Shown piece after piece: positions 1,902 through 56,328 of a stretch of 64,000 bases of DNA. The stretch is from Escherichia coli O127:H6 str. E2348/69 (lineage in GTDB: Bacteria; Pseudomonadota; Gammaproteobacteria; Enterobacterales; Enterobacteriaceae), in NCBI RefSeq assembly GCF_000026545.1, contig NC_011601.1; one strand, 5' to 3'. The notes under the pieces are model-generated. The model was not told the origin of the DNA. It saw only the letters and a list, made by a program, of their open reading frames with translations, and made no database searches. Numbering within the stretch: the stretch's first letter is position 1; each line of letters opens with the position of its first letter. The position numbers were made by a program, and so were the translations under genes.

Positions 1902-2102
1902 TTATTTCGCATCCTCTTCGCAAACACAGTGCTGACAATTCAGCAGCCTGATATTAGGCACTCAACTAATACGCTGCTGACGCTGTCCTCAACACCAGAT
2001 ATTTTCCCTAACCCGATAGTGTATGAGAAAAGATTTAACGCTGATAAACTAATCCTTTATGGTTAGGAGAAAAAATAATGTGATTATTCTGGGCTCTTAA
2101 CA

Positions 2103-2116
2103 TTGATCGTTATCAA
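2103..2116. promoter_or_regulatory. FNR-type box TTGAT-N4-ATCAA upstream of ydhY operon
   Basis: Perfect ttgatcgttatcaa palindrome ~200 bp upstream of ydhY start in an AT-rich leader; ydhY operon is known to be FNR-dependent. Confidence 0.55.
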
Positions 2117-2356
2117 TTAAAATCACAAAGCAAGAAATTATAAGTGAACTGATATTTATTATCATTTGAAATAAATTTAACTTAACCGACAATTATTTGT
2201 GAAGTTCATCGCAGAAAATAAAAATAACTTTATCGCTATAAATTAAAATACACACCGAAATTCATATAATTTCAGCAGTTGTTATTTAGAATGATTAACT
2301 GGACCGCAACTGAACTAACAATATCAGGATGAAGCTTACCGCCTCATCCTGAATGG

Positions 2357-2566
2357 TCATTTTACCAGTGCGTTAATGACTGTCTCCATCGCCTGCTTTT
2401 CCAGCTCACTGCGCTGAATGCGTTTATTGGCTAATGCTGTACGTAATACGCCTGCGATAACAATATGCTTTGGTTCCTGCCCCAGATCGCGCATTTCCAG
2501 CACAACTTTACCGACAACTCTGCACATTTCTCGGTACAGTTCATCCTCTTTTGTCCGGTTTCCCAT
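2357..2566 (-). CDS. fumD: Small protein YdhZ/FumD (69 aa)
   Basis: 69-aa ORF at the K-12 position between ydhY and pykF. Confidence 0.65.
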   Translation of the reverse strand: MGNRTKEDELYREMCRVVGKVVLEMRDLGQEPKHIVIAGVLRTALANKRIQRSELEKQAMETVINALVK

Positions 2567-3122
2567 TCTTTATACCTATTTATCATGCCAACTATCAGCA
2601 TATATCAATCTAACCAATTAAACAAAAATCAAACAAAATCAGACAAATAACGTGATAAATTATTTTAACTGTAGCAATTGAGCGATGATGTATTTATACA
2701 CCGGATGAACTTTCACTTATCCTCACACTGACAACCCCGGCACCAGACGTTGCGCAAACAACGAAGTTTTTGCGTAACCTTTTCCCTGGAACGCTGAATC
2801 TTTGATAACAATTTATTGTCTTACAAGTTGTATATTTTTTGAAACGCTGTTTTTGTTTTCCTTTTGGATTAATTTCAGCGTATAATGCGCGCCAATTGAC
2901 TCTTGAATGGTTTCAGCACTTTGGACTGTAGAACTCAACGACTCAAAAACAGGCACTCACGTTGGGCTGAGACACAAGCACACATTCCTCTGCACGCTTT
3001 TTCGATGTCACCTATCCTTAGAGCGAGGCACAACCACTTTCGTAATACCGGATTCGCTTTCCGGCAGTGCGCCCAGAAAGCAAGTTTCTCCCATCCTTCT
3101 CAACTTAAAGACTAAGACTGTC

Positions 3123-17901: not shown

Positions 17902-18039
17902 TAACATTTTTCCGCTTCGCTACCTCGCCCCTCACTCTTTCCAATAATGTTGCACAAGATACTGTGACTCTCTTCAAGCCGTCAGCAGGCTGATAATGTT
18001 ATTTATATTTTATTGTTTATTTCATGCAGCCATTACACG

Positions 18040-18396
18040 ATGAACGCTTATGAACTCCAGGCACTTCGCCATATTTTTGCCATGACTATTGATGAATGCG
18101 CGACCTGGATTGCCCAGACCGGTGACAGTGAAAGCTGGCGTCAGTGGGAAAATGGCAAATGCGCCATTCCTGATTGTGTAGTAGAGCAACTGTTGGCTAT
18201 GCGTCAGCAACGAAAAAAACATCTTCATGCCATCATAGAGAAAATAAATAACCGCATCGGCAACAACACCATGCGTTTTTTCCCCGACTTAACCGCGTTT
18301 CAACAAGTCTACCCTGATGGCAATTTTATTGACTGGAAGATCTATCAATCGGTAGCCGCTGAATTATATGCACACGATCTGGAGCGGCTTTGTTAA
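18040..18396 (+). CDS. ydiL: Uncharacterized protein YdiL
   Basis: 118-aa product from internal Met (MNAYELQALRH...). Confidence 0.7.
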   Translation: MNAYELQALRHIFAMTIDECATWIAQTGDSESWRQWENGKCAIPDCVVEQLLAMRQQRKKHLHAIIEKINNRIGNNTMRFFPDLTAFQQVYPDGNFIDWKIYQSVAAELYAHDLERLC

Positions 18397-18495
18397 TTTC
18401 TCCACAGAAAGGAATTGTCGTTGTTACAACAATAATGAACGGATACTGACACAACATCGCTACACTTTTTAAAGCACCTTTGCTAAGTAGAACCT

Positions 18496-19710
18496 ATGAA
18501 AAATCCCTATTACCCTACCGCACTTGGGTTGTATTTTAATTACCTGGTGCATGGTATGGGCGTCATTTTGATGAGCCTGAATATGGCCTCGCTGGAGACG
18601 CTTTGGCAGACTAATGCCGCGGGCGTCTCGATAGTTATCTCATCACTGGGCATTGGTCGATTAAGTGTCTTGCTTTTTGCAGGATTATTATCCGATCGCT
18701 TTGGTCGCCGCCCTTTTATCATGCTCGGGATGTGCTGCTATATGGCCTTCTTTTTTGGCATCCTGCACACCAATAACATCATTATCGCTTATGTTTTTGG
18801 CTTTCTGGCGGGAATGGCAAACAGTTTTCTCGATGCAGGCACCTATCCCAGTTTGATGGAAGCTTTTCCACGCTCACCGGGTACAGCCAATATTTTAATT
18901 AAAGCATTTGTTTCCAGTGGACAATTTTTATTACCGCTAATCATCAGCCTGCTAGTGTGGGCTGAACTGTGGTTCGGTTGGTCCTTTATGATTGCCGCAG
19001 GCATTATGTTTATTAACGCTCTGTTTTTATACCGTTGTACGTTCCCACCCCATCCGGGTCGTCGCTTACCTGTCATAAAGAAAACCACCAGCTCTACGGA
19101 ACATCGCTGTTCAATTATCGATTTAGCCAGTTATACCTTATATGGCTATATCTCAATGGCAACGTTTTATCTGGTTAGCCAGTGGCTGGCACAGTACGGA
19201 CAATTTGTTGCAGGCATGTCATACACTATGTCGATCAAACTACTTAGTATCTACACCGTGGGTTCGCTGCTTTGTGTATTTATTACCGCTCCACTCATTC
19301 GTAATACCGTTCGCCCAACAACATTACTGATGCTGTACACCTTTATCTCATTTACTGCTCTGTTTACCGTCTGTCTGCATCCCACATTTTATGTGGTGAT
19401 AATATTTGCTTTCGTCATCGGTTTTACCTCCGCAGGCGGTGTTGTACAAATTGGCCTGACGTTAATGGCGGAACGTTTTCCCTACGCTAAAGGAAAAGCA
19501 ACGGGGATCTATTACAGTGCGGGCAGCATTGCAACATTTACCATTCCGTTGATTACGGCTCATCTTTCGCAAAGAAGTATTGCCGATATTATGTGGTTCG
19601 ATACCGCCATCGCTGCTATCGGCTTTATACTGGCACTGTTTATTGGCTTACGCAGTCGCAAAGAAACGCGGCATCACACGCTAAAGGAAAATATCGCTCC
19701 GGGTGGGTAA
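18496..19710 (+). CDS. ydiM: MFS transporter YdiM
   Basis: 404-aa 12-TM-like ORF. Confidence 0.8.
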   Translation: MKNPYYPTALGLYFNYLVHGMGVILMSLNMASLETLWQTNAAGVSIVISSLGIGRLSVLLFAGLLSDRFGRRPFIMLGMCCYMAFFFGILHTNNIIIAYVFGFLAGMANSFLDAGTYPSLMEAFPRSPGTANILIKAFVSSGQFLLPLIISLLVWAELWFGWSFMIAAGIMFINALFLYRCTFPPHPGRRLPVIKKTTSSTEHRCSIIDLASYTLYGYISMATFYLVSQWLAQYGQFVAGMSYTMSIKLLSIYTVGSLLCVFITAPLIRNTVRPTTLLMLYTFISFTALFTVCLHPTFYVVIIFAFVIGFTSAGGVVQIGLTLMAERFPYAKGKATGIYYSAGSIATFTIPLITAHLSQRSIADIMWFDTAIAAIGFILALFIGLRSRKETRHHTLKENIAPGG

Positions 19711-19936
19711 TGCAATATTCTTTTCAGGTTATGCAAGATCTTACGGATAAATAACTCTTTCTGCGCTAACTAAGGAAAATCGCGATCAAAAACAAACTAT
19801 GACATGCAATATTCCTGGAAACATAAACTTTATGCCATGTACCCAGGGAAAATCATCTTCAGTATAGTAATTATGTAAACCGTCGGAGAACAATACGTAC
19901 GGTAACGAAATTATCTTTCAGCAAGGAGCTGTGAAA

Positions 19937-21202
19937 ATGTCTCAAAATAAGGCTTTCAGCACGCCATTTATCCTGGCTGTTCTTTGTATTTACTTCAGCT
20001 ATTTCCTGCACGGCATTAGTGTTATTACGCTTGCCCAAAACATGACATCTTTGGCAGAAAAGTTTTCCACTGACAACGCGGGCATTGCCTATTTAATTTC
20101 CGGTATCGGATTGGGGCGATTGATCAGTATTTTATTCTTCGGAGTGATCTCCGATAAGTTTGGTCGTCGGGCGGTGATATTAATGGCAGTAATAATGTAT
20201 CTGCTATTCTTCTTTGGTATTCCTGCTTGCCCGAATTTAACTCTCGCCTACTGTCTGGCAGTGTGCGTAGGTATCGCTAACTCAGCGCTGGATACGGGTG
20301 GCTACCCCGCGCTCATGGAATGCTTTCCGAAAGCCTCTGGTTCGGCGGTCATACTGGTTAAAGCGATGGTGTCATTTGGGCAAATGTTCTACCCAATGCT
20401 GGTGAGCTATATGTTGCTCAATAACATCTGGTACGGCTATGGGCTGATTATTCCGGGTATTCTGTTTGTACTGATCACGCTGATGCTGTTGAAAAGCAAA
20501 TTCCCCAGCCAGTTGGTGGACGCCAGCGTAGCTAATGAATTACCGCAAATGAACAGCAAACCGTTAGTCTGGCTGGAAGGTGTTTCATCAGTACTGTTCG
20601 GTGTAGCCGCATTCTCGACCTTTTATGTGATTGTGGTGTGGATGCCCAAATATGCGATGGCTTTTGCTGGTATGTCAGAAGCTGAGGCATTAAAAACCAT
20701 CTCTTATTACAGTATGGGTTCGCTGGTCTGTGTCTTTATTTTTGCCGCACTGCTGAAAAAAATGGTCCGGCCCATCTGGGCTAATGTATTTAACTCTGCA
20801 CTGGCAACAATAACAGCTGCCATTATCTACCTGTACCCTTCTCCATTGGTGTGTAATGCCGGAGCCTTTGTTATCGGTTTCTCAGCAGCTGGCGGCATTT
20901 TACAGCTCGGCGTTTCGGTCATGTCAGAGTTTTTCCCAAAAAGCAAAGCCAAAGTCACCAGTATATATATGATGATGGGTGGACTGGCTAACTTTATTAT
21001 TCCGCTGATTACCGGTTATCTGTCGAACATCGGCCTGCAATATATCATTGTTCTCGATTTTACTTTCGCGCTGCTGGCCCTGATTACCGCAATTATTGTT
21101 TTTATCCGCTATTACCGCGTTTTCATTATTCCTGAAAATGATGTGCGGTTTGGCGAGCATAAATTTAGCACCCAGTTAAACACAATTAAGCATAGAGGTT
21201 AA
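19937..21202 (+). CDS. ydiN: MFS transporter YdiN
   Basis: ~421-aa membrane ORF, paralogous in sequence to ydiM. Confidence 0.8.
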
Positions 21203-25816: not shown

Positions 25817-26728
25817 TTATCCGGCAAGACTTACCGGTTGAGGAAATTCAGATAGGATTTCTTGTTCCGCAAAACAGTTTTTAAATTGCCTGCGGTAATC
25901 GCTGGGCGAACAGCCGACATGGCGCAAAAACAGTTTGGCAAAGTGATCGACATTTTCATAACCCACACGCCAGGAGATCTCTGCCTGTGATAATTCAGTA
26001 TTAGTGAGTGACCATTTCGCTTCCGTCATACGCCGTTGAATAACATAGTTAATAGGGGAAATACGATACTCTTTGGTAAATTCATGGCAGATATAACTGA
26101 CGCTGGCACGAAATTTTTTCGATAACTGCTCTAAAGTGATTTTTTCGCGATAGTTATTATTCAGATAGAAAAGAATATCTTTTATCAGAACATCTTTTTT
26201 AATATACCCCTGCTCCGAACGATAAGCATTTTTAAAGTTTTCGTAGTAAAGAATTGCTAACGTATAGGCAAATGCGTCCCATAACGAAGATGTTTGGCTA
26301 TTTTTACTTTGCGGCAAAATCACACTTAGCTCATTAAATAAGGTTTTAATGACTTCTTTTCCCTGCCCTGCGGCAATTACCGGGCAAGAATGCGGTTGCA
26401 GTAGCTGATTTTCCTCAGCCCCCTGAAACTGAAAGCCGTACAGCGCACAGGTACACGTCGTTGCCGGATCGTTAACGTCAGAGGCCACCGCATGCAGCCT
26501 GCCACGTTCTATCACCACAATGTCATCGGCATGCGCGACATATAACGAAGAATCGATGGTAAACCTTGCTACCCCTTTCTTGACGTAAATCAGCTCGGTT
26601 TCATTGTCATGAACGTGATGTCCAGACTCCCATTTTGGATCATCGCTAAATGCGAAACGTGAAAGCCGTGGCGTTTTACCGGCGACAAACAGCGTTTCAC
26701 TGGCATTATCAAAACAGCGTTGATACAT
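25817..26728 (-). CDS. ydiP: AraC-family transcriptional regulator YdiP
   Basis: 303-aa ORF with cupin-like N-terminus and C-terminal AraC HTH. Confidence 0.8.
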   Translation of the reverse strand: MYQRCFDNASETLFVAGKTPRLSRFAFSDDPKWESGHHVHDNETELIYVKKGVARFTIDSSLYVAHADDIVVIERGRLHAVASDVNDPATTCTCALYGFQFQGAEENQLLQPHSCPVIAAGQGKEVIKTLFNELSVILPQSKNSQTSSLWDAFAYTLAILYYENFKNAYRSEQGYIKKDVLIKDILFYLNNNYREKITLEQLSKKFRASVSYICHEFTKEYRISPINYVIQRRMTEAKWSLTNTELSQAEISWRVGYENVDHFAKLFLRHVGCSPSDYRRQFKNCFAEQEILSEFPQPVSLAG

Positions 26729-27043
26729 GACAACCTCCCTATTCCATGAGCAAACAAAAACAATATATGCCGGATAAAATACGGCGTGTATTGCGGTTAT
26801 ACAACCGCGTTTAGCGAGAGCTAAACAAGATTATTTACACTGAATGCAAGATTGCACGGTCATGGAATAACTATATTGCCGCAAATTGCACTTTTGTTTT
26901 AGCGATCGCATTTTTTTTGCAAGATTGTTGGCAAGGAAAACAGCTTGCTCCGTCGAAAACCCCGCACCGCTATCGCACACTATTTTCAGGCCATTTTTAC
27001 CTTCCATCGGAGATGGTTCCGTATGCGACTCACAGGAGAAATC

Positions 27044-38732: not shown

Positions 38733-39446
38733 TTATCGCTGAACTAACGTCGTTATCTGATTTATAGGAACCGCAGGCCACAGGCATCCCTGGAGAGCAT
38801 GGAAATCAAAGGGGATAATCTGTGCCAATATTTCTGGCGTATCAATGCCCCCCGCGATGATGCAATTGCAACAAGGGGAAATTTGCGCCTGGATCGCACG
38901 AATAAACGGTTCGAAGGAACGATGCGTGATTTGTTGCTGAATAAAACTTTTATCCAGCATGACGCGGGTGAAAAGACCATCAAAAACCGCTTTCATTGTG
39001 CTATTACCTGCTCCCAAATTACCTAACACAAGGGGATACATTTGCGATAAGGATAAAAGATCGCGATTATCTTTTCCTTCATTGAAATGCGGGTAATTCT
39101 CATTAATCAACAGTTCAATAAACGGATATTTTAATAGTTCGCCTGCGAAATTATCCCTGTCTAATAATAATGTAGCCACGTGTGGCGTTAAATTAAGCCA
39201 GGCAAAGAGTTTATGTTGAATAAAAAAGTGTTGGCATGATTTTAGTAATTCCAACTGCTCTGAAAATAATTGCCAATGTTGCTCCTCGGTAAGTTGCGCT
39301 ATAACCCGACTCGTCGGGATACGAACCGTACCATCTTCACTGGAGAAATGGGTAATTAACTCAACGCCGACAAGGTCTTGCTGGTTATCTCTTATCGGCA
39401 GGAAATAGCAATCAGAATGATAAAGATTCTCCAAAAAAATCTTCAT
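38733..39446 (-). CDS. ydiV: EAL-like anti-FlhDC factor YdiV
   Basis: 237-aa ORF. Confidence 0.85.
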   Translation of the reverse strand: MKIFLENLYHSDCYFLPIRDNQQDLVGVELITHFSSEDGTVRIPTSRVIAQLTEEQHWQLFSEQLELLKSCQHFFIQHKLFAWLNLTPHVATLLLDRDNFAGELLKYPFIELLINENYPHFNEGKDNRDLLSLSQMYPLVLGNLGAGNSTMKAVFDGLFTRVMLDKSFIQQQITHRSFEPFIRAIQAQISPCCNCIIAGGIDTPEILAQIIPFDFHALQGCLWPAVPINQITTLVQR

Positions 39447-39692
39447 GGTAACCGTCCCTCTCGAAGGATGTTTTTCAGTATCCGGCTAAAAGGGATGAGG
39501 CCATAAGACATAACAATTACAGAAGGAGTAACTTTCATTTGTTCCATGTTAACCACTTTTTCAGGGGTCCTTTTTTTAGATTATCCTGATTATAAACGAA
39601 GAATCCATTTACGGAATTTTTGTCTGCAAAATACTACTGTATTCAGGAGTAAATGGACGGCGATGTATCATCGCCGTCCATTTTTCGACATA

Positions 39693-40157
39693 CTAGATTC
39701 GTCTCGCCTGCCAGAAATTTTTCTGCCAATAGACATTATCAAGTGAGGAACGCATCACTCCCTTGCTGGTAGAGGCGTGGATAAATTGGTTGTTGGTATC
39801 GTAAATACCTACATGCAAACCATTTTGTCCGGAACCCGTTTTGAAAAAGACCAGGTCACCTGGCAGCAACTCGTCTTTATCAATTTGCGTGCCAATAGCG
39901 GCTTGTTGTTTGGTTTCACGGGGCAGCTGCAAATCGAAACGATCACGCATCGTCACAACCACAAATCCCGAACAGTCCACACCGCGCCGCGTCATGCCAC
40001 CATAACGATACGGCGTGCCATGCCAGCTTTGTAGCTGGTCGTTCAAACCGGCAATAACGGTGATCGAATCAGAAAGTCTGGCATTTGGCGGCGGTGCTTT
40101 ATGGTGGCTACACCCGGCCAGAAACAGTGCTGTGATCAAAATAAGGCAGAAACGCAT
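39693..40157 (-). CDS. nlpC: NlpC/P60 lipoprotein endopeptidase
   Basis: 154-aa ORF with lipobox LAGCS and Cys-His NlpC/P60 core. Confidence 0.85.
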   Translation of the reverse strand: MRFCLILITALFLAGCSHHKAPPPNARLSDSITVIAGLNDQLQSWHGTPYRYGGMTRRGVDCSGFVVVTMRDRFDLQLPRETKQQAAIGTQIDKDELLPGDLVFFKTGSGQNGLHVGIYDTNNQFIHASTSKGVMRSSLDNVYWQKNFWQARRI

Positions 40158-42766: not shown

Positions 42767-43183
42767 TCATTCGCTCCCCTCTTTTTCCTTATTTCGTTGA
42801 ACGCCAATTGCGACACACGTACTAAGCAAATCTTTACATTTCTCTACATCTTCAGACTTACGCAATTTGATGCTTTTTACAGACTGCGGGCTACTGTCCG
42901 TAGCACGATACATCGTTATTTCAATATCATTTCGGTCTAAGAGTCCCATAATGGCTTTTGCAACCTCCACACCCTTCTTCGCGAAATCAAAGAACAGAGC
43001 AAGTTTATATGGATTTTCGACGGAAAAAACTTCAATTTTGCTAAAACCAACATCGTGTAGAGAAAAATATTGCTCAACCTCATCTCGAAGTTCTGGATCG
43101 CATACAATGTCTATTCTCCAGTACTGACCTAAATGCAAATCGCTATTAACTGTTTTTTCCACAACATCCTCCTTACCCAGCAA
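42767..43183 (-). CDS. Hypothetical protein (138 aa), AT-rich, immediately downstream of and overlapping the int stop
   Basis: Complete ORF with acidic/lysine-rich composition; no family recognised. Confidence 0.45.
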   Translation of the reverse strand: MLGKEDVVEKTVNSDLHLGQYWRIDIVCDPELRDEVEQYFSLHDVGFSKIEVFSVENPYKLALFFDFAKKGVEVAKAIMGLLDRNDIEITMYRATDSSPQSVKSIKLRKSEDVEKCKDLLSTCVAIGVQRNKEKEGSE

Positions 43184-44147
43184 TAGGATTAAATCTCACC
43201 GCATCCTGCAAGTAATCCGGCGCAAGATGGGCATAAATCATCGTTGTCTGAATCTTTGCGTGCCCCAGAATTTTCTGGAGCGTCAGAATATTGCCGCCGT
43301 TCATCATGAAATGACTGGCGAAGGTGTGGCGCAGCGCATGAACAGCCTGGCCGTCAGGAACATCAGGTGCGACCGTTTTGATGACATCGCGAACCAATGG
43401 ATAATCCAGCGTCGGAAACACCAGTTTCCCGCCCCGTTTTTTGATCTTTTCAAACAGGCTTTCAGAAATAGGAACGGTACGGTTTTTGCTGTTCTTCGTT
43501 TTTGAAAAAGTGATTCGACAATGAAGAACACGGCGCTGCTCCAGTGCCGCTACCTCGCCCCATCGCGCCCCGGTCGACAGAAGGATTTCGACAGCCAGCC
43601 GTTCATCGGGATTTTCAGCCAGTGCATCCAGCAACTGAACACATTCAGACTTACTCAGATATCCCATTTCGCGCTCGTTAACCTTCATTCCTTTAAGGCC
43701 TTGAACGGGGTTATCGTTAAGAAAATGGCCGGATGAGATGAGTGCGGTAAACATCGCGCTTAACGCCCCAATCTCTCGATTAATGGTGCTGGGCTGTATC
43801 CCCTGCTCTATCCTGGACACACGTAGCTCGGTGAGCATCGTTGTATTAAGTTTATGCACACACGGGTCATCCATTGCCTCACTCAAGCGCAGCAATTTAA
43901 GGCGCGTGTTATGCCCTGACTTCATTAGCTGGCCGTGGTATTTCCACCACAAGTCAATAAGCACCGACAGCGGACGGCGATCAATGGAGTTTCCTTTCCA
44001 CTCATTGTTATGCTGTTGCGCCAGCACCCACCGCTCATATAAAACTGCATCCGATTTCGTTTTAAATTTTTTGCGAATGCGTTTGCCTTTACGCCCCTCA
44101 GGGCGCATGTCAAGAAGATACCCTCCCGGAATTGATTTTATGCTCAT
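43173..44147 (-). CDS. int: Tyrosine integrase (P2 Int-like)
   Basis: Strong similarity to P2 integrase (…EGRKGKRIRKKF…, …LSTGARWGE…, …HALRHTFASHFMMNGGNILTLQKILGH…MIYAH…); start taken at internal Met (MSIKSIPGGY) of the 374-aa ORF. Confidence 0.9.
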   Translation of the reverse strand: MSIKSIPGGYLLDMRPEGRKGKRIRKKFKTKSDAVLYERWVLAQQHNNEWKGNSIDRRPLSVLIDLWWKYHGQLMKSGHNTRLKLLRLSEAMDDPCVHKLNTTMLTELRVSRIEQGIQPSTINREIGALSAMFTALISSGHFLNDNPVQGLKGMKVNEREMGYLSKSECVQLLDALAENPDERLAVEILLSTGARWGEVAALEQRRVLHCRITFSKTKNSKNRTVPISESLFEKIKKRGGKLVFPTLDYPLVRDVIKTVAPDVPDGQAVHALRHTFASHFMMNGGNILTLQKILGHAKIQTTMIYAHLAPDYLQDAVRFNPIAG

Positions 44148-46940: not shown

Positions 46941-49763
46941 ATGACGGCAGAGTACATCAGGGACTGGCAACAACCGCGCCACGCAGTGGGGCGTGAAGGA
47001 ACGGGGATCCCCGCTCCTGAATCCGCGCTTTCCTCCTGGCTGGATGCCTACCGGGCAGAGAACGAGCACCGCCAGGAAATGGCTGATGCGGCGTTCTCCG
47101 CCACGCCGCTGGGCAACCTGATTAATAAAAGCCTGGACGCACAGGAAAAACAGGACAAAACCATCACACTGGCAGGAGACGCCAGAAAACAGGCACGCGG
47201 CGCGGTGGATGAAGCCATGGCCTCGCTGCGCCTGCTGCCGTCCTATCTGCGCGATCCGCTTATTCGCCACCTCTCCTTCCTGCGCAAAAAACAGGAAGCC
47301 GATCGTCAGAAAGGAAAAAACGCCAGGCAGGCAGAACGCTATGCGCGTGGGACCCTGCGCAAAATATTCGAACGTCTGGAGCGCACCGATCACCGCTGGC
47401 TGACACCGGGTTATCGCTCCCTTGCCGGACGCGAACGCCTGGACGATTTGCTTTACCTGCCGCAGCTCAACAAACACCAGATAAAGACGCTGGCAACCAT
47501 GACGGCGGCGATGTTCAGCAGCACCTTCGAAAAACTCTGCGATGGCTTTGGCGCGACCGATGGCGAGCTGACCATGGATGTAACCCTGAAGGCGTATCAG
47601 ATGCTGGCCCGCATGGCGTTACACCTGCACGCCATGCCTCCACATTATGACGCACTGACAACAGACAAAGACCGGAGGAACGAACCGGACACGGAGCTGC
47701 TGCCGGGCGCAATCCTTCGCCTGACCTGTGCGGAATGGTGGAAACGCAAACTGTGGCTGTTACGTTGCGAGTGGAGAGAAGAACAACTCCGCGCCGCCTG
47801 TCTGGTTTCCAGAAAAACATCGCCCTATCTGAGCCAGGACGCGTTAAGCGAGTTTCGCGCACAGCGCGAGAAAACACGCGATTTCCTGAAAAGTTTCATG
47901 CTGGAAAACGAAGACGGGTTCACGATTGATCTCGAGACAGTGTATTACGCGGGAGTAAGTAACCCGGTTCACCGTAAGGCAGAAATGATGGCCACCATGA
48001 AGGGACTGGAACTTCTGGCCGAAGCCCGTGGCGACAGAGCGGTGTTTCTGACTGTCACCTGCCCGTCAAAATACCACGCAACAACGGAGAACGGTCATCC
48101 GAACCCCAAATGGAACGGGGCCACCATGCGCGACTCCAGCGATTACCTGGTTAACACGTTTTTTGCGGCGGTCCGCAAAAAACTGAACCGCGACGGCCTG
48201 CGCTGGTATGGCATCCGCACGGTGGAGCCTCACCATGACGGCACCGTGCACTGGCATATGATGGTCTTTGCTCATCCGGAAGAAATCGACAGCATCGTGA
48301 CCATCACCCGCGATATTGCCATTCAGGAAGACCGCCACGAGCTGGGCAATGATATTACTCCGCGCTTTAAGGTGGAGTACGTCGACGGCACCAAAGGCAC
48401 GCCAACCAGCTACATCGCCACCTACATCGGAAAAAACCTGGACAGCCGCGCCGTGGATGGCATCGACCCGAAAACGGGCAAACCACGCGTTGACCACGAA
48501 ACCGGAAAATCAATGGCCGAGAGCGTGGAGCGCGCCATCGGTTGGGCACGCCTTCACCGGGTCCGCCAGTTCCAGTTCTTTGGCATCCCCTCCCGTCAGG
48601 TGTGGCGTGAACTCCGCCGCCTTGCCAGCCAGATGGCACGCAACCCGGAAGGCCCGCAACGGCTGAAGGATGACGCAATGGATGCGGTACTCGCTGCCGC
48701 TGATGCCGGATGTTTTGCCACCTACATAGAGAAACAGGGCGGTGTACTTGTTCCACGCAAAGACTACCTGATTCGCACCGCCTACGACCTCGCCGATGAG
48801 CTGAACGATTACGGCGAACAGAGTGTACAGATTTACGGGATCTGGTCACCACTCATCGGGGAATCCTCCCGTGTGTGCACGCACCCGGATAACTGGAAGC
48901 TGGTAAGACGTAAACCGGAACAGGAAGGCAGCGCCCACGAAAATGGTTTTGACCTTCAGGGCGGCCCTGCCGCCCCTTGGACTCGTGGCAATAACTGTCC
49001 CCGTGTACAGGAAACGGACAACAACGGGACAGAACAGCCGGAAGAACGGCCAGCACCGTGGCCGCAGCTCCCTGACGGCGTTGAAGTGAACGAATGGGTG
49101 CGCTCACTGAAACGGCACGAACGCCGGGCGCTGATGCGTTCGCTTCGTGACAAACAGGCAAAAAACAGCAGTGATGAAATGCAGAGCTGGACACAGAGCC
49201 GCAAACAGCAGCGGCCTTTGCCTGATAACCACGAATTACTCGCTAAAGAATGGCGGGAGTCTGCTGAATCTCTCGGCCTGCATATCGGTGAACAGCAGAT
49301 GCAGCACCTGTTACGGGGCGGCAGCCTGTACGTTGACGGCAGCATCATTGCACCGCAGGGATATGAAATTGTACGTAAACCGGATACCCGCCCGGACAGC
49401 CGAATCACGCAGCTCTGGCAACGCCTGAGCCGTAACCACGGCGTAAGCAGCACGGAGATCCGCCATAACCCGGTCGCCAGCTATCTGGAACAACTAGGGG
49501 CATCAGACCCTGAAGCCGCCGCACGCCTGGCATCCACACTTCAGCAAGACCAGAACACCATGAAAACACCCGTTACCGTACTTTCTGACATGCTGCGCGC
49601 CATCCGCGACGCAGAGCACGAACAGAGAATCAGTGAAACAACTGAACGCGCCCGCCGCAAAGCAGACCTGCTGCGGGGTGGCCTGACCAGTGGAAACAAA
49701 AAACAGACAAAAACGGGATTCACAAATCCCGTAAATGAGCAAAAAACGCGCCGCGATATATGA
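46941..49763 (+). CDS. A: Rolling-circle replication initiator (P2 gpA-like HUH endonuclease), 940 aa
   Basis: HUH motif (GTVHWHMMVF) and Y-x3-Y active-site pair (YIATYIGKN) as in P2 A. Confidence 0.85.
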   Translation: MTAEYIRDWQQPRHAVGREGTGIPAPESALSSWLDAYRAENEHRQEMADAAFSATPLGNLINKSLDAQEKQDKTITLAGDARKQARGAVDEAMASLRLLPSYLRDPLIRHLSFLRKKQEADRQKGKNARQAERYARGTLRKIFERLERTDHRWLTPGYRSLAGRERLDDLLYLPQLNKHQIKTLATMTAAMFSSTFEKLCDGFGATDGELTMDVTLKAYQMLARMALHLHAMPPHYDALTTDKDRRNEPDTELLPGAILRLTCAEWWKRKLWLLRCEWREEQLRAACLVSRKTSPYLSQDALSEFRAQREKTRDFLKSFMLENEDGFTIDLETVYYAGVSNPVHRKAEMMATMKGLELLAEARGDRAVFLTVTCPSKYHATTENGHPNPKWNGATMRDSSDYLVNTFFAAVRKKLNRDGLRWYGIRTVEPHHDGTVHWHMMVFAHPEEIDSIVTITRDIAIQEDRHELGNDITPRFKVEYVDGTKGTPTSYIATYIGKNLDSRAVDGIDPKTGKPRVDHETGKSMAESVERAIGWARLHRVRQFQFFGIPSRQVWRELRRLASQMARNPEGPQRLKDDAMDAVLAAADAGCFATYIEKQGGVLVPRKDYLIRTAYDLADELNDYGEQSVQIYGIWSPLIGESSRVCTHPDNWKLVRRKPEQEGSAHENGFDLQGGPAAPWTRGNNCPRVQETDNNGTEQPEERPAPWPQLPDGVEVNEWVRSLKRHERRALMRSLRDKQAKNSSDEMQSWTQSRKQQRPLPDNHELLAKEWRESAESLGLHIGEQQMQHLLRGGSLYVDGSIIAPQGYEIVRKPDTRPDSRITQLWQRLSRNHGVSSTEIRHNPVASYLEQLGASDPEAAARLASTLQQDQNTMKTPVTVLSDMLRAIRDAEHEQRISETTERARRKADLLRGGLTSGNKKQTKTGFTNPVNEQKTRRDI

Positions 49764-49839: not shown

Positions 49840-50799
49840 ATGAAAATTTGTATCGACGACGGCTCCACCAACATCAAGCTGGCATGGACTGAGAACGGCG
49901 AACACCGCAACGCCATCAGCCCGAACAGCTTCAAGTCGGAATGGTCTGCGCCGTTCGGTGGCACGCAGCCCGCGAACTACATGCTTGATGGCGTGCGCTA
50001 TGGTTTTGATCCGGTCAGCGATCGCTTTGTCCAGACGACCGACACGCAATACCAGTACAGCGATGTGAATGTCATTGCCATTCATCATGCGCTGGTCAAA
50101 TCAGGCATCACGCCACAGGAGGTGGATGTGGTTGTCACCCTGCCACTGAGCGAGTATTTCGACACAAACGCACAGCCGGACATGGCCAACATCAACCGCA
50201 AAAAAGCGAACGTTATGCGCCCGGTGGAGTACCAAAACGGCGAGGCATTCACTATCCGTAACGTGCGGGTTATGCCTGAATCCATTCCGGCTGGCTTTAA
50301 AGCACTGGCTGACATGAGTCCGTTTGAATCCCTGCTGATTGTGGATTTGGGCGGAACCACGCTGGATGTGGCAAAGGTTCAGGGGCAACTGGCAGGTATC
50401 AGCCAGGTGTTTTGCGATCCACACGTAGGCGTTTCTCTGATGGCCGATGCCGTGCTGTCGGTGATGGCCACCAACGGTATGCGCACCAGTCACCACATCG
50501 CCAATACCATTATCGAACATCGCCACGATGAAGCCTGGCTGCGCCAGCACATCCACAATGACGCGCATTACGCCAGCCTGATGGCAGTTATTCGTGAAAA
50601 GGAGGAAACACTGAAACAACGCGTGATCCGCGCGCTGGCGGTTTTTTCGGGTTACGGGCGGGTGATGGTTGTCGGTGGAGGGGCGGAGATTGTGGCACCC
50701 GCTATCCGCGAAGCCTGCGGAGTTAATGCGACTTTCATCGCGGACGGGGTGCCACAGTTTGCTCTGGTTAATGGGCTGTACGCAATGGACAAGGAGTAA
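49840..50799 (+). CDS. parM: ParM/StbA-like actin-type partition ATPase
   Basis: IDDGSTNIKL...ISPNSFK...YSDVNVIAIHHAL...RKKANV...VMPESIPAG...DLGGTTLD...VVGGGAE closely parallels plasmid R1 ParM. Confidence 0.85.
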   Translation: MKICIDDGSTNIKLAWTENGEHRNAISPNSFKSEWSAPFGGTQPANYMLDGVRYGFDPVSDRFVQTTDTQYQYSDVNVIAIHHALVKSGITPQEVDVVVTLPLSEYFDTNAQPDMANINRKKANVMRPVEYQNGEAFTIRNVRVMPESIPAGFKALADMSPFESLLIVDLGGTTLDVAKVQGQLAGISQVFCDPHVGVSLMADAVLSVMATNGMRTSHHIANTIIEHRHDEAWLRQHIHNDAHYASLMAVIREKEETLKQRVIRALAVFSGYGRVMVVGGGAEIVAPAIREACGVNATFIADGVPQFALVNGLYAMDKE

Positions 50800-50803
50800 A
50801 CCA

Positions 50804-51115
50804 ATGACGACTCCAACCAGACGGATAAGTTTCTATCTGAAGCCCACCGCCGTCAAGAACGAAGGAGAAGCATGCGCCTGGCTGGACAGCCTTACACCAG
50901 AAGCCCGCAAAAGCGGCCAACGCGTGGCTTTTCTGGCCGGGCTGGCACTTCTGAAAATGAATCCGGCAGAGGCTTACCGACTGGCTGCATGGGCTGATGA
51001 TGAGGTGTTATCAGTGACACAAACCAAGACAGAACGCCCCGCGTCACAGCCAGTATCAACCGCACAGATAACCAGTCAGATGGCCGGAAATATCCGGGCG
51101 TTATTTCCTGAATAA
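50804..51115 (+). CDS. parR: ParR-like centromere-binding adaptor
   Basis: RRISFYLKP...WLDSLTPEARKSGQRVAFLAGLAL...RALFPE parallels R1 ParR (RTIAFKLNP...TLDSIP..RS..RAALTAGLAL...SLFPKE); internal-Met start. Confidence 0.7.
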   Translation: MTTPTRRISFYLKPTAVKNEGEACAWLDSLTPEARKSGQRVAFLAGLALLKMNPAEAYRLAAWADDEVLSVTQTKTERPASQPVSTAQITSQMAGNIRALFPE

Positions 51116-51493
51116 CATCAGGGCGTATTCGCCCTGCCACCAATCCCATAACATAAAGAACGGGGTGCAAATCACTATACACCCCGTTCCAATACAAACC
51201 ATCAGAAGATCTACACATCTTTCTCAAATGGCCAAGTAATCGAGCTGGTTCAGGAATAAGCATGCTGCCAACACAAGTGAAGGAGATAAAACTGTAGAAC
51301 TGATCAATCGTTGGAAACAAGTATTGACAGTATGTTCGAGTAACCCAACTGGATAGATTTTATGCTGATTATCCATACAGTAAAAAAGTAAGGATACTCT
51401 TTGAATTACGCCAGCAAGAGTGGTAACATTAGTCAATGATTTTCATTAATGTAGTTACCAGCTTACACAAGCTGATGTTTTATTGGGGGTTTT

Positions 51494-52576
51494 ATGGTAA
51501 ACGTGAGGGAGGATGAACTTTTCAAACTCATCGAGCAAGGCATCAAAGGCAACGCAAATGCATTTACACTCCTATGCAGAAAGATGATTAACAACATCCG
51601 TAAAAATGATGAGGCTTTAGCTTCTAAGCTGGCTTCGTTAGTTGCTGAGGGAACAGTATTACGTGGGGCATCTAGTAAGGCTCCTATGCCTGTGGATGGA
51701 GACTCCAGACGAAACCTTTTGCAGGAAACATCTGTCAACGCAATTGTTGAAGAACCTGTATGGAATACGGATATCTCAAAGAAGCTGGAGTCAATTGTTA
51801 ACGAAAGAGAGAATGCGGTTTCTTTGTTCAAAGCTGGTCTTGAACCTGTGAAGACGGTTTTACTTTCTGGCCCGCCAGGCGTAGGCAAAACAATGTCCGC
51901 ACATTGGCTTGCTGCAAAGTTAAATTTACCTCTTTTAACATTGGATCTCTCATCTGTAATGAGTTCTCTTTTGGGAAAAACAGGTAATAATATTAAATCC
52001 GTTATGGATTATGCCAAAGAGAAACCATGTGTCCTTTTGCTTGATGAATTTGATGCTGTTGCAAAAAGACGTGATGATGACAGGGACGTTGGAGAATTAA
52101 AACGTTTAGTTACTGTACTCCTACAGACCATAGATGAGTGGCCAGCGACCTCGCTTCTTGTTGCTGCGACTAATCACCCTGATATCTTAGATCCGGCTGT
52201 TTGGCGTCGATTTGAGCACATCCTTAAATTTAATATGCCATCAGTAGAACTGATAGATAGATATTTAGTCAATCATAATATTGAACCTGAACTATCTAAA
52301 AAACTTGCACCATTATTAGATGGCATGTCCTTTGCCATCATTAACCGTATTTTGAATTTCTCCAAAAAGAATGAGGTACTTAGAAATATTCCATTTGAAA
52401 GCTCATTAATAGAAGCCGTAATTACGGAGAGGGTTTCATTGGATGAGTTTAGCGATAATGATCTCAATATAATTAAATATCATTTTGACGGTTTTTCAAA
52501 TAGGAAGATAGCTGAATTAGTTGGTGTTTCACATCCAACAATCGCGAATAAATTACAAAAGTGGGGGATTAAATGA
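51494..52576 (+). CDS. Classic-clade AAA+ ATPase with C-terminal LuxR/GerE-like HTH (360 aa); candidate defence component
   Basis: Walker A GPPGVGKT (aa 126-133), Walker B LLLDEFD (aa 181-187), sensor-1 ATN, second-region-of-homology-like DILDPAVWRRFEH; C-terminal NRKIAELVGVSHPTIANKLQKWGI HTH. Confidence 0.85.
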   Translation: MVNVREDELFKLIEQGIKGNANAFTLLCRKMINNIRKNDEALASKLASLVAEGTVLRGASSKAPMPVDGDSRRNLLQETSVNAIVEEPVWNTDISKKLESIVNERENAVSLFKAGLEPVKTVLLSGPPGVGKTMSAHWLAAKLNLPLLTLDLSSVMSSLLGKTGNNIKSVMDYAKEKPCVLLLDEFDAVAKRRDDDRDVGELKRLVTVLLQTIDEWPATSLLVAATNHPDILDPAVWRRFEHILKFNMPSVELIDRYLVNHNIEPELSKKLAPLLDGMSFAIINRILNFSKKNEVLRNIPFESSLIEAVITERVSLDEFSDNDLNIIKYHFDGFSNRKIAELVGVSHPTIANKLQKWGIK

Positions 52577-54777
52577 TGGAAAGGAACTTACTTTTAGGTA
52601 ACGGTCATGTTCTGACAAAAAAGGAACCTTTGCCTAAAGGAAGGGATGGTAAGCGCTATCCCTATACTCTTGAAGAAGTAAGGGAGCATTTAAACCCAGA
52701 GATTGATACTTTACTCTCACGCTTTCGCAGTTTGGATGATGCGGCTAAGCCAAGGGGGGAGAGTGTATTCAATTTAACTTTACACCCAGCGTTTTTGGGT
52801 AAAAGCTACTTTCCGGAAGGATTGCTTAGAGCGACAGGTTTACGGGATGTCGGCAGCCGTCAGGTAATCATTCGCCCACGGAAAGCGGCACGTCAGTGCG
52901 ATCAGAATAAGGACTTAGTAACGGCGCAACTGTTTGTTAGCGGTGATGATGATGCCGTTATAAGATTTAAGGAAATTTTAAATTCCCCTACAGCTCCGAA
53001 GGGCGTACAAAAGGATTTGATCGAAATTGAAAGTGTTAGCTTTTTTGAAGGAAAAGAGAGAGCACGCAATTTTGAGCATGCGAAAAGTGATTTGATAAAA
53101 TTTGAAGTGGTTCTTCATGCTGGGGTTGAAGACGATGATATCGTTAAAGCCTATATTAGCTATGCGGCACAATATGATGTCTCTGTTGATTACAAAAGTA
53201 GAATCCAAGTTGGTGGGCTGACTTTCATCGTTGCACACGCGCGACCTGAAGATATGAAAAAAACACTCGATTTTTCATTAATCCGCGTTGTGCGGCCGAT
53301 GCCGTCTCTCAGGTGTACTCAGCCGAACATTGTCAGAAAGTTATCTAATATAGTTACACCGGAGCTCCCTAATTCTAAAGCTGTTCTTGAATCCGAACGT
53401 ATTGCCATTTTTGATGGTGGCTTGGGGACAGCTGACTTGAGTAATTGGGTTACGGAATACGTGTATCCAGACACCAAAGAAACAAGCGGATTATTATTGC
53501 AGCACGGTAATGAAGTGACATCCACTTTCTTATTCGGACGTGTCGAGGAAAATGCACCTTCTTTTAAAAGACCGTTTATGAATGTAGATCATTATAGAGT
53601 TCTTTCACCGACATCAGGTGACAATGGCAATTGGGATTTATTTGATGTCCTTAAGAAAATACAGTCCGTTCTTGATAGTGGTGACTATAAGTTCGCTAAT
53701 CTAAGTATTGGTCCTCATCTTCCAATTGGTGATGATGAGGTTCATGTATGGACTGCTGTTTTAGACCAAATCTGTGCTAAGCATGGGATATTACTTACTG
53801 TTGCTGTTGGGAATGATGGCAATGAGGACGGTGATGCAGCGAGAATACAACCTCCTTCCGATATGGTAAACGCGCTAGCGATTGGTGCTGCTGATCGTAG
53901 CGGTGAAAAATGGGGGCGGGCACCATATAGCTGTATTGGGCCAGGCAGAAGCCCCGGATTCGTTAAACCTGATGGTGTTATTTTTGGTGGAAGCGACGAC
54001 GAGCCTTTTTACACTTACAACCCTCTGCTTGGTTCTATAGTTGGAGTTCAAGGAACCAGTTATGCCTCTCCATTAGCATTGAGAACGGCCGCTGGAGTTG
54101 CGGCTCTATCAGGAACTCCATTGAACACCATTGCATTGAAAGCGTTGCTTGTTCATCATGCTGAAACATCAAGAAAATATTCGCGTGAACATATCGGTTG
54201 GGGACGGTTTAGTGAGGATCCTAACGTTTTAATCGATTGTCCAAATGATACTGCTACAGTAATTTACTATGGTTCATTAGCAAAAAATAAATATTTAAGG
54301 GCACCGATCCCATTCCCTGATGTTCCCTTTGACGAAGCATTTGAGCTTACCGCTACTTTATGCATTCAAACCCCAGTAGATCCTGAACATTCAGTAAACT
54401 ATACAAGGGCCGGTATGCAGGTAACTTTCCGCCCAAGATTCGGCCTTGACGATACCGATACAGATGATTTCTTTGGTCAAAAAAGCCAGTATAAGACTGA
54501 AAGGGAGTGTAGGAGTGAAGGTCATAAGTGGGAAACTTGTTTGCACAGAAGCAAAAAGTTCAGTGCTGATACATTATTAAGCGATCCAGTTTTTGATATA
54601 CGGTATCATGCCCGAGATTCTTCGCGCCATGTTAAGGGAGTTTCAGCCCCTGATATGCAATATGCGATGGTAATAAGCGTAAGGGTAAAAGACTTTGATT
54701 TATATAATGTTATTCGCCAGCGATATACAATTCTGAATCCTATTCAACTGCGCACACAAATTTCTCTCGACACGTAA
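52573..54777 (+). CDS. Subtilisin-like (S8) serine peptidase, 734 aa, no signal peptide; candidate defence effector
   Basis: Catalytic order D-H-N-S: IAIFDGG (D281), HGNEVTS (H311), VAVGNDG (N414), GTSYASPLA (S496); ~270-aa N-terminal and ~230-aa C-terminal regions unassigned; start overlaps ATPase stop (ATGA). Confidence 0.85.
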   Translation: MMERNLLLGNGHVLTKKEPLPKGRDGKRYPYTLEEVREHLNPEIDTLLSRFRSLDDAAKPRGESVFNLTLHPAFLGKSYFPEGLLRATGLRDVGSRQVIIRPRKAARQCDQNKDLVTAQLFVSGDDDAVIRFKEILNSPTAPKGVQKDLIEIESVSFFEGKERARNFEHAKSDLIKFEVVLHAGVEDDDIVKAYISYAAQYDVSVDYKSRIQVGGLTFIVAHARPEDMKKTLDFSLIRVVRPMPSLRCTQPNIVRKLSNIVTPELPNSKAVLESERIAIFDGGLGTADLSNWVTEYVYPDTKETSGLLLQHGNEVTSTFLFGRVEENAPSFKRPFMNVDHYRVLSPTSGDNGNWDLFDVLKKIQSVLDSGDYKFANLSIGPHLPIGDDEVHVWTAVLDQICAKHGILLTVAVGNDGNEDGDAARIQPPSDMVNALAIGAADRSGEKWGRAPYSCIGPGRSPGFVKPDGVIFGGSDDEPFYTYNPLLGSIVGVQGTSYASPLALRTAAGVAALSGTPLNTIALKALLVHHAETSRKYSREHIGWGRFSEDPNVLIDCPNDTATVIYYGSLAKNKYLRAPIPFPDVPFDEAFELTATLCIQTPVDPEHSVNYTRAGMQVTFRPRFGLDDTDTDDFFGQKSQYKTERECRSEGHKWETCLHRSKKFSADTLLSDPVFDIRYHARDSSRHVKGVSAPDMQYAMVISVRVKDFDLYNVIRQRYTILNPIQLRTQISLDT

Positions 54778-54784
54778 TTTTTAT

Positions 54785-54806
54785 GGCCGCGAAAGCGGCC
54801 TTTTTT
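54785..54806 (+). terminator. Rho-independent terminator after the peptidase gene
   Basis: ggccgc-gaaa-gcggcc hairpin followed by T6. Confidence 0.65.
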
Positions 54807-54953
54807 CTGTAATTTTTTTATGAATTTACATGCACGATAGTGCACAAATTTGCACAATTTTTTTGAACGAATTTTTGCCCTTCTGGCCCGCGTGGCGGCT
54901 GGATCCGTCAGGGATCCGTGCGTGCACAAAAAAACGCGCTTTTTCTGCGCGCA

Positions 54954-54972
54954 GGTGACGGGGGAACAGCCC
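54954..54972. other. Candidate cos (cohesive-end) site
   Basis: ggtgacgggggaacagc resembles the P2/186 cos core GGCG(A/T)GGCGGGGAAAGCA(C/T) and lies at the expected place upstream of the Q 3' end. Confidence 0.3.
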
Positions 54973-55281
54973 GCGTTTCAGGGGGTAAATAGCATCCCCT
55001 GAACGATGTCGCAGCGACACAACAGAATGGCTGTATTTCTCACGCTGAGCGTGAAAAAGACGTGAGGGCTTTTGATTTGATGGGGTGACAGATAAGGCCG
55101 TCAAAATCGCACTGAGGCGGCGAGAACATGCAGTCAACGCGGTGGGATTGCGTAAGAGCCTGACCGTCGATGATGGCGATAAGCTGGAAGACGTCGTGAA
55201 ATTATCTGATTGATACAGGAGCTGGAGAGTCGGGGCATAAATTTTTTATGCCCCGACGAAGCAGCAGACAAGCGAAGCGCG

Positions 55282-56328
55282 TCAGGATGTGGGCTGGGTG
55301 TCTAACAGTGCGTAAGGGTTAAAGCGGATCACCTCTTCGCCAAGCCAGTCATTGATGTGCTTCATAGCCTCCATAACGGGCATCAGCTCGTTAATTGCAT
55401 AAACCCGCGCGGCCTTCTCCACATCACCAAACGCACTTTTTTCGCCCGGCATCGCCCCCATCAGTTGCGGCGGAACGCGGTGCGCAGCCAGTACATCATC
55501 ACGGGATGCCGCCTTAACATTCATGAACTCATCCTTTGCGGTGATCTGCTGGAACGGCAAAATTTGCACCCCCTCTTTGCCCCCGTTGGGCGCATGAATG
55601 AGCACGTTTTTAAATGCACCACCACCACGCGCACCCTGTAACGTTTCTTTCAGGGAGTCCATGCTTTCGCGGTTTACCTGCGCTGCACCGATGTAGATGA
55701 TGCACCCGGCGTGGGATCCGTTGTCGTAGTACAGTTTTCTGAACATGTCCGCCGAATGAGAAAGGCTGGCCGAGAGTAATGCGCCAAGATATTCCGGCAT
55801 GCCGTAGATTTCCTGGTTAATATCCGGATTCATCAGGTGGCATACTTTGCCAGGGCGAAACTGAAACGCGTCCTTACCATCCTGCACATACCACCATGAT
55901 TCAAGATCGCTTCCGCGTCGCATGTATTTCGCCAGGGCGTGCCGTAATTTAAGCGGTTCGCCGAGCATATTGCTTCGAAGCTCAAGGAATGCATTACCGA
56001 ACACAAACCAGTCCAGCGCCAGCGCCGAGAAATCCTGCCGGGAAAGCAGCGGGTGCGGGATGTAGCAACCGAGTAATACATTGCGCTTAAAGTAAAGCGC
56101 AGACTGATGCCAGGACGTTTGCCGGGCTGCTCTTGCCAGACCGTACCAGTCCACCGGGGTTTCATACCACCGCCCGTTATCAGCACAGTACATATTGTCC
56201 AGCAGGTCATGCCCGGTCAGGCGATAAGGACCATCAAATGTGAATGCACTGAGCGATGATTCTTTCCTGAGCGCATCAGCGAGATCAATGCGTGAACTCA
56301 TGCGCACTTTTTTGTTTTTTCTGCTCAT
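55282..56328 (-). CDS. Q: Portal protein (P2 gpQ-like)
   Basis: 348-aa ORF, size and position as P2 Q, paired with P on minus strand. Confidence 0.88.
   Translation of the reverse strand: MSRKNKKVRMSSRIDLADALRKESSLSAFTFDGPYRLTGHDLLDNMYCADNGRWYETPVDWYGLARAARQTSWHQSALYFKRNVLLGCYIPHPLLSRQDFSALALDWFVFGNAFLELRSNMLGEPLKLRHALAKYMRRGSDLESWWYVQDGKDAFQFRPGKVCHLMNPDINQEIYGMPEYLGALLSASLSHSADMFRKLYYDNGSHAGCIIYIGAAQVNRESMDSLKETLQGARGGGAFKNVLIHAPNGGKEGVQILPFQQITAKDEFMNVKAASRDDVLAAHRVPPQLMGAMPGEKSAFGDVEKAARVYAINELMPVMEAMKHINDWLGEEVIRFNPYALLDTQPTS

Follow-up and report, generated by a model that had tools for sequence, protein, structure and literature searches.

A probable IetAS cassette, exchanged horizontally, in the gpA-gpQ hotspot of a P88-like prophage of Escherichia coli E2348/69

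Where does a markedly AT-rich pair of genes between the replication and portal genes of a P2-family prophage come from, how far does it extend, and what might it do for its host? These questions are raised by positions 51116-54810 of a 64,000-nucleotide stretch of Escherichia coli O127:H6 str. E2348/69 (contig NC_011601.1), the whole of which was analysed and is referred to as the window, with positions counted from its first letter. A first-pass annotation, made from the sequence alone, had described this block as compositionally distinct, with its own leader and terminator, and had suggested that it was acquired separately and does not consist of ancestral phage genes. Judged by sequence, the two genes of the block are members of IetAS, an ATPase-protease pair, at the level of the family and not at the level of the equivalog. 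We consider it very probable that the block is a self-contained, horizontally exchanged IetAS cassette in the gpA-gpQ hotspot of a P88-like (Xuanwuvirus) prophage, with abortive infection as its proposed mechanism. The parts of the block and its right-hand border are as follows.

51116-51232, + strand: leader part i, a backbone remnant of P88-lineage sequence 3' of parR, forming the ragged left edge of the hotspot
51235-51356, + strand: leader part ii, a foreign, frameshifted gpA 3'-end fragment of Novemvirus/Senquatrovirus type
51357-51493: leader part iii, the cassette control region (homology with a lambdoid copy begins at 51351)
51494-52576, + strand: ietA, a 360-residue classical-clade AAA+ ATPase with a C-terminal helix-turn-helix
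52573-54777, + strand: ietS, an S8 subtilase of 734 residues, probably intracellular, whose N-terminal region is prodomain-like and whose C-terminal domain is beta-rich
54785-54806, + strand: intrinsic terminator at the end of the cassette (GGCCGC/GCGGCC stem, 54785-54800; T-run, 54801-54806)
54824-54975: right border of the hotspot, formed by conserved backbone sequence that contains TGCAC repeats and is common to P88-like and Novemvirus-like phages

Composition, exchange and limits of the block

Sliding-window G+C content (GC) and codon usage were calculated for the window. The GC of the block is 0.414, compared with 0.536 for the prophage minus the block, which makes it the least GC-rich 3,695-bp window of the 64 kb (others: mean 0.504, standard deviation 0.031, minimum 0.436). 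The deviation is seen in each part, with values of 0.397 for the leader, 0.390 for ietA and 0.427 for ietS, as opposed to 0.576 for gpA, 0.555 for parM, 0.542 for parR and 0.532 for Q. Similarly, GC at third codon positions (GC3) is 0.330 for ietA and 0.337 for ietS, compared with 0.52-0.76 in backbone genes. Codon usage is clearly different too: synonymous usage of the block against the backbone gave a summed chi2 of 537 (41 degrees of freedom, p ~1e-87), and a control comparison of A plus parMR against the other backbone genes gave a chi2 of 61. GC, GC3 and codon usage thus all bear out the description of an AT-rich block distinct from parR, A and Q. An AT-rich composition relative to the flanks was found for ietAS cassettes at 8 of 9 loci (cassette GC 0.37-0.43, flank GC 0.46-0.56).

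The block sits between gpA/parMR and the portal gene Q of a P2-family prophage that is integrated beside btuC and whose nearest sequenced phages are P88-like Xuanwuvirus. This is the position of the published gpA-gpQ hotspot, a variable, cos-proximal defence hotspot of P2-like phages (Rousset 2022, PMC9122126). Alignment to close relatives, namely P88, PhiR44_2, Chuche, Shae_phiSM and one sequence type 131 (ST131) P88-like phage, located the limits of a variable zone on both sides. In all five, flanks ~95-97% identical to those of the window enclose unrelated cargo. Homology on the left ends at 51115 (Chuche), 51136 (PhiR44_2), 51165 (P88) or 51233 (Shae_phiSM), and is regained on the right at 54824-54831. 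The flanks were found in 1,437 of 5,426 complete E. coli genomes, only 30 of which hold this cargo arrangement.

The same cassette also occurs in other backbones. In Enterobacter phage phiT5282H (Novemvirus) it follows gpA, without parMR, and is 95.8% identical over 51233-54975, with a portal gene that is only 70% identical. It is located directly after gpA, again without parMR, in the IMG/VR contig L015 and in E. coli AMR2684, whereas in the IMG/VR contig L008 it follows an integrase and repressor C and is joined at 51237. A lambdoid copy (IMG/VR contig L016, and L020, a Plesiomonas shigelloides plasmid record) has 76% nucleotide identity and 85% IetS identity, with homology confined to 51351-54800. 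P2-like prophages of Yersinia enterocolitica and Limnobaculum carry the cassette at gpA-gpQ (IetS identity of 81% and 78%, respectively), and more distant homologues are found in non-phage settings, near Tn7-like genes, beside CBASS (cyclic oligonucleotide-based antiphage signalling system) genes or in an integrase island. Unrelated cargo within near-identical flanks, together with the presence of the cassette in other phages, supports separate acquisition as first proposed; vertical inheritance of ietAS, congruent with the backbone, is already contradicted by the close relatives. The block is a module swapped as a unit into a known variable site, a finding that is correct but ordinary and mainly confirms known biology. 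The minimal portable unit spans approximately 51351-54806, and includes the native control region.

Within the lambdoid sequences the cassette (L016 4866-8284, L020 4787-8205) lies inside the lysis cassette, between an M15 endolysin and a DUF2514 spanin, and the called ietA open reading frame (ORF) is 45 codons longer upstream. In E. coli strain A1 (NZ_CP029328.1), an otherwise identical parR-ietAS-Q region is broken by ISCro1, an IS66-family element.

The comparison allows the limits of the block to be refined. The proposed right limit, 54810, is accurate to within ~15-20 bp. The left limit, 51116, stands as the edge of the variable zone but not as the start of the cassette, which is at 51233 (minimal conserved unit from 51351). 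The leader is indeed exactly 378 bp long, from the parR stop (51113-51115) to the ietA ATG at 51494, but is no single unit, consisting instead of three parts of different origin. Part i contains two strong hairpins (51119-51136 and 51157-51190; fold of -30.6 kcal/mol, z = -7.35) that look like terminators of parMR. Part ii encodes the last ~42 residues of gpA in two frames, split by a 7-bp deletion; tblastn with the C-terminus of phiT5282H gpA aligned 16/19 and 19/23 identical residues in the two frames (E 5e-14). In phiT5282H, an intact gpA reads through the sequence homologous to 51235-51356, and gpA of Salmonella phage SEN5 has a related tail at its end, but other cargo downstream. On this sequence evidence we read the gpA fragment as a recombination scar carried in with the cassette. 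Its location at the left end points to a P2-like phage with ietAS directly after gpA as the donor, from which the cassette was imported by recombination, and the scar provides a physical record of how such cassette swaps happen. Minus-strand ORFs in the leader (e.g. 51224-51436) were taken as spurious, being broken by a 7-bp indel in phiT5282H.

At the right-hand side, the homology with phiT5282H and L015 extends to 54975-54987, though the portal genes are only ~70% identical. The segment 54824-54975 is probably a right-hand homology anchor for cassette exchange. TGCAC repeats are found within 54836-54975 (aTGCACgatagTGCACaaattTGCACaattttttt, then cgTGCACaaaaaaa) and are partly kept in the Yersinia P2-like prophage. 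Candidate functions for this repeat segment are a packaging or cos-related role and that of a recombination anchor.

Two other accounts of how the block arose were considered. One holds that AT-richness reflects functional or selective constraint on ancestral phage genes as opposed to foreign origin. Comparative data refute this, since sister phages with flanks 95-97% identical have other cargo in place of these genes, the left junction bears a fragment of a foreign gpA, and the cassette remains 95.8% identical in a phage with a portal only 70% identical; we regard it as extremely improbable, even though ietAS cassettes are AT-rich in very different hosts, including a Chromobacterium locus with 0.56-GC flanks. 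The latter observation does imply that some of the bias may be maintained, and not merely inherited from a donor. The other account, in which the cassette moved by mobility functions of its own in the manner of a transposon or integron, would fit the sharp limits that recur in several contexts (left at 51233-51237, right at 54800 or 54824-54831). However, the cassette, in which there are only two ORFs of meaningful size, contains no transposase or integrase of its own, and no terminal inverted repeats, flanking direct repeats or target-site duplication were detected in 51000-55300. The left junction includes the gpA fragment and the right one falls in conserved backbone, as expected for homologous or illegitimate phage recombination, and we give the transposon-like account next to no credence.

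The block resembles two known arrangements. Like the old/tin locus of P2, it is positioned between gene A and Q, with cargo that varies among near-identical phages; it differs in that the cargo is IetAS and not Old/Tin. At ~3.7 kb the cargo is near the reported hotspot average of 3.2 kb (PMC9122126), and parMR is also present. Hendrix-type phage morons share with the block a deviant GC, a strong terminator of their own, a conserved promoter-like element and a location between two conserved phage genes. In contrast to morons, the promoter in the window is predicted only, and the unit is exchanged across phage families with scraps of neighbouring genes.

The control region and the terminator

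Four elements were located, or considered, in the part of the leader that belongs to the cassette.

51363-51382: candidate LexA box, palindrome CTG-N10-CAG (TGCTGATTATCCATACAGTA), 112 nt 5' of the ietA ATG
51401-51429, + strand: predicted ietAS promoter (-35 TTGAAT at 51401-51406, 17-nt spacer, extended -10 TGgTAACAT at 51421-51429)
51459-51474, + strand: hairpin CAGCTT-ACAC-AAGCTG in the 5' untranslated region (5'-UTR)
51485-51489, + strand: Shine-Dalgarno sequence GGGGG

An alignment of six cassette leaders revealed two conserved blocks in an otherwise diverged background, namely the extended -10 element and the candidate LexA box. The sequence AGTGGTAAnAT (51419-51429) is invariant in the six cassettes, despite diverged spacers, and TTGAAT is found 17 nt upstream in the closer copies. 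By this pattern of conservation, ietAS is probably expressed from its own extended -10 promoter. A perfect TTGACA at 51324-51329 was rejected as a -35 element: there is no usable -10 at 16-18 nt, and the hexamer lies inside the gpA remnant, is altered in phiT5282H and falls outside the homology with the lambdoid copy. A minus-strand promoter-like site (51384-51357) that overlaps the LexA-like box was also discarded, as its -10 is not kept in other cassettes. The 5'-UTR hairpin shows one compensatory G-C to A-T change in phiT5282H. It is not kept in the lambdoid copy, and its significance is doubtful because 51437-51500 folds no better than shuffled sequence (z = 0.02).

The clean hairpin/T-run terminator described at 54785-54806 is confirmed by its fold energy (-13.7 kcal/mol, z = -3.1 compared with shuffles). 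It consists of a 6-bp all-GC stem, a GAAA loop and six T residues, and the hairpin is kept in the lambdoid copy, the homology of which stops at 54800. An Rfam scan of 50700-55400 gave a sole match, to 'Histone3 stem-loop' at 54760-54805 on the minus strand, which at 32 bits is below the gathering threshold of 34 and was dismissed as a chance resemblance.

The candidate LexA box TGCTGATTATCCATACAGTA agrees with the LexA consensus TACTGTATATATATACAGTA (PMC8072944) in 15 of its 20 positions and retains the full CTG-N10-CAG core. Scores come from an uncurated matrix of 17 E. coli SOS boxes, a caveat that applies to all LexA scores given here. The candidate box scores 6.79 and is the best site in the window (the next scores 13.4, and the 17 SOS boxes 2.1-11.7); this score was reached by 5 of 500 shuffles of the 64 kb and by none of 2000 stretches of 160 nt. 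It was found that the box is kept 111-113 nt from the ATG in five of six diverged cassettes (close clade), and LexA-box-like sites are also located at 4138 in L001, 4871 in L016, 4785 in L023 and 3854 in L026. No such site is present in the P88-like relatives with other cargo, which makes it specific to the cassette. In Enterobacter ludwigii, a different LexA-like site (score 9.48, the best of that locus) is found 53 nt upstream of an ietA with 43% identity. An alternative -10 (TACAGT, 51376-51381) with a weak -35 lies inside the candidate box. A literature search returned no paper linking ietAS to LexA. Going by the box and its conservation, ietAS expression is possibly modulated by LexA.

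A related arrangement exists in coliphage 186, where a LexA-repressed p95 promoter drives tum in an SOS operon to the right of the replication genes. As in 186, the LexA-box-like site of the window falls, within a P2-family phage, in the interval from the replication gene to the presumed cos. Unlike in 186, the candidate box belongs to the cassette and not to the backbone, and precedes a defence/toxin-antitoxin operon as opposed to an antirepressor. A strong LexA-box-like site (TACTGTACATAAAAACAGTG) was additionally observed at L016 2250-2269, at the start of a lambdoid phage DNA methylase gene.

IetA, IetS and their proposed action

The two genes are co-oriented, and the ietS ATG overlaps the ietA stop (ATGA, 4 nt), which suggests that they are probably translationally coupled. 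The PADLOC IetA model aligns with residues 7-356 of 360 (3.6e-89) and the IetS model with residues 22-707 of 734 (6.6e-41), while Pfam identifies AAA (9.6e-31) and HTH_50 in IetA and Peptidase_S8 in IetS. IetA contains Walker A (GPPGVGKT, 126-133), Walker B (DE, 184-185) and RRF (238-240) motifs, and the IetS catalytic residues D281, H311, N414 and S496 are intact and invariant across 63 homologues. The best solved relatives of IetA are the unfoldase-type AAA+ proteins p97, Cdc48 and PAN. A sequence search of solved structures yielded no IetA or IetS, only generic AAA+ and subtilisin relatives, and literature look-ups by RefSeq protein accessions gave nothing relevant. IetAS (Gao_Iet) was reportedly described as an anti-phage and toxin-antitoxin system by Gao et al. 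in 2020, and was originally known from the ietA/ietS stability genes of an Agrobacterium Ti plasmid. The window pair resembles it in having an AAA+ ATPase followed by a ~730-residue S8 subtilase, with full-length PADLOC matches and intact motifs, and differs in being of a divergent subfamily, with a candidate LexA box, in a phage hotspot. The assignment gives names to two E2348/69 genes that are labelled generically in RefSeq.

An AlphaFold model of IetS was obtained (predicted local distance difference test score 83.8, predicted template modelling score 0.87). Its best structural matches are pro-form subtilases: Tk-SP ProN, EpiP, unprocessed pro-subtilisin E, PCSK9 and clostridial Csp proteases. 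Isolated subtilase prodomains match the N-terminal region of the model. The model thus suggests that IetS has an N-terminal prodomain-like module and may be a zymogen, in line with pro-subtilases that retain their prodomain (pro-subtilisin E, Tk-SP, PCSK9 and CspB/CspC). In contrast to those enzymes, to which it is 3-20% identical in sequence, IetS carries two ferredoxin-like modules and a long helix upstream, and would be cytoplasmic and paired with an AAA+ ATPase.

In published work the protease is the toxin and the ATPase the antitoxin, with the anti-phage mechanism described as unknown (PMC13069673), and a Bacillus homologue acts by abortive infection in response to one phage protein (bioRxiv 10.1101/2022.08.27.505566). 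Extrapolating from homology and this literature, IetS would be a cytoplasmic, zymogen-like protease toxin held in an inactive state, with the IetA ATPase as its antitoxin and sensor partner, restraining it via an ATP-dependent action. A protein of an infecting phage would disturb IetA control and unleash the IetS protease. The resulting proteolysis and growth arrest would then occur before the phage cycle is completed, so that the lysogen population is protected. A co-occurrence study that maps the location of defence systems (chromosome, plasmid or prophage) found E. coli ietAS to be sometimes prophage-borne, and location on integrated elements may explain the mutual exclusion of ietAS and Zorya II (bioRxiv 10.1101/2022.08.21.504612).

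Several observations weigh against a self-contained, defensive IetAS cassette. IetA scores 253 bits with the NCBIfam model IteA_antiphage, for which the equivalog cut-off is 510, and IetS scores 115.7 bits with IteS_antiphage (cut-off 900). Values so far below the cut-offs indicate a divergent IetAS subfamily, of which the validated systems are only distant relatives, and account for the generic RefSeq names 'AAA family ATPase' and 'S8 family peptidase'. The corresponding PHROG families, 3757 (IetA) and 3964 (IetS), are labelled 'unknown function'. When present alone, E. coli ietAS (from ECOR52) gave limited protection (bioRxiv 10.1101/2022.08.21.504612). With respect to the control region, the predicted promoter scores 8/12, just below the threshold of the promoter scan, and the candidate LexA box is situated ~19 nt 5' of the predicted -35, an uncommon position for the binding site of a repressor.

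Other functions can be envisaged for the same pair. It could be mainly an addiction module that, in concert with the neighbouring parMR, keeps the prophage or a plasmid-like form of it from being lost. The earliest description of ietAS, as cited in PMC13069673, is of a toxin-antitoxin pair that stabilises a plasmid, and the cassette is found directly 3' of a ParM/ParR module that may allow persistence as a plasmid (Rousset 2022, PMC9122126). We nonetheless consider this unlikely, given that phiT5282H, L015, AMR2684, Yersinia, Limnobaculum and the lambdoid phage have this cassette but no parMR with it, that parMR-bearing P88-like phages hold many other cargos, and that homologues are experimentally anti-phage; addiction and defence are, moreover, not mutually exclusive. 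A role for IetS as a secreted virulence protease of this enteropathogenic strain, acquired by lysogenic conversion and with IetA as its chaperone, is scarcely credible. Inspection of IetS revealed no signal-peptide-like hydrophobic stretch at the N-terminus, the same cassette is present in environmental and animal isolates and in non-pathogens, and IetS is both a full-length match to IetS defence models and tightly coupled to a cytoplasmic AAA+ ATPase with a helix-turn-helix.

An extension of the abortive-infection reading is that IetAS in enterobacterial phages is wired to the SOS response via the LexA box, with IetS a cytoplasmic pro-subtilase whose inhibitory prodomain-like module is controlled by IetA as an unfoldase-type ATPase. 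We put this forward tentatively, and consider it on the whole doubtful. If it were true, a suicidal protease would be released or increased in amount upon DNA damage, on induction of the prophage or in response to a phage trigger, and this would be the first concrete regulatory and mechanistic handle on IetAS defence. The LexA box and the prodomain-like module would, if upheld, provide testable entry points into the unsolved mechanism of IetAS. These two elements, like the gpA scar, extend known biology to a modest degree.

Prophage setting

The remaining landmarks of the prophage are listed below.

43173-44147: integrase, followed by a C-type repressor and early genes
46941-49763: replication gene A (gpA; Pfam Phage_GPA)
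49840-50799, + strand: parM (Pfam StbA_N/ParM, 2.7e-82)
50804-51115, + strand: parR/StbB-like gene (Pfam Plasmid_stab_B, 6.7e-24)
55282-56328, - strand: portal gene Q (Pfam Phage_portal, 4.4e-18), the right anchor gene of the hotspot

Beyond Q, terminase P is followed by P2-type capsid, lysis and tail genes. The GC-rich left neighbour of the block, parMR, is itself accessory cargo of the gpA-gpQ region. A putative partition system is found in ~1/4 of P2-like phages, and it has been suggested that P2-like prophages with parMR may be able to persist as plasmids (Rousset 2022, PMC9122126). At this locus, a ParM/ParR plasmid-partition pair in an integrated prophage lies directly 5' of a cassette of a type originally reported as a toxin-antitoxin for plasmid stability. 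The P2 cos 19-mer had no match with up to 3 mismatches in the window; the adjacency of the block to cos is presumed. There are no tRNA genes in the window as a possible integration target.

The gpA homologue of the window has 940 residues and is ~150 residues longer than gpA of phiT5282H (790 residues) or SEN5 (796 residues); the alignment is confined to the central region, at 31% identity, and the termini differ. Just downstream of Q, a perfect hairpin with 13-bp arms (GTCGGGGCATAAA TTT TTTATGCCCCGAC, 55229-55257) is probably a bidirectional terminator. A second AT-rich gene, at 42767-43162 on the minus strand between btuC and the integrase, encodes 132 residues (GC 0.394, GC3 0.348); no Pfam domain was identified in it, its family (PHROG 14142) is of unknown function, and it is possibly accessory cargo at the prophage end. 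Other low-GC patches (0.37-0.44) lie in the chromosomal part of the window, at 2001-3000, 18001-20000, 26001-27000 and 39001-40000, the last of these being ydiV.

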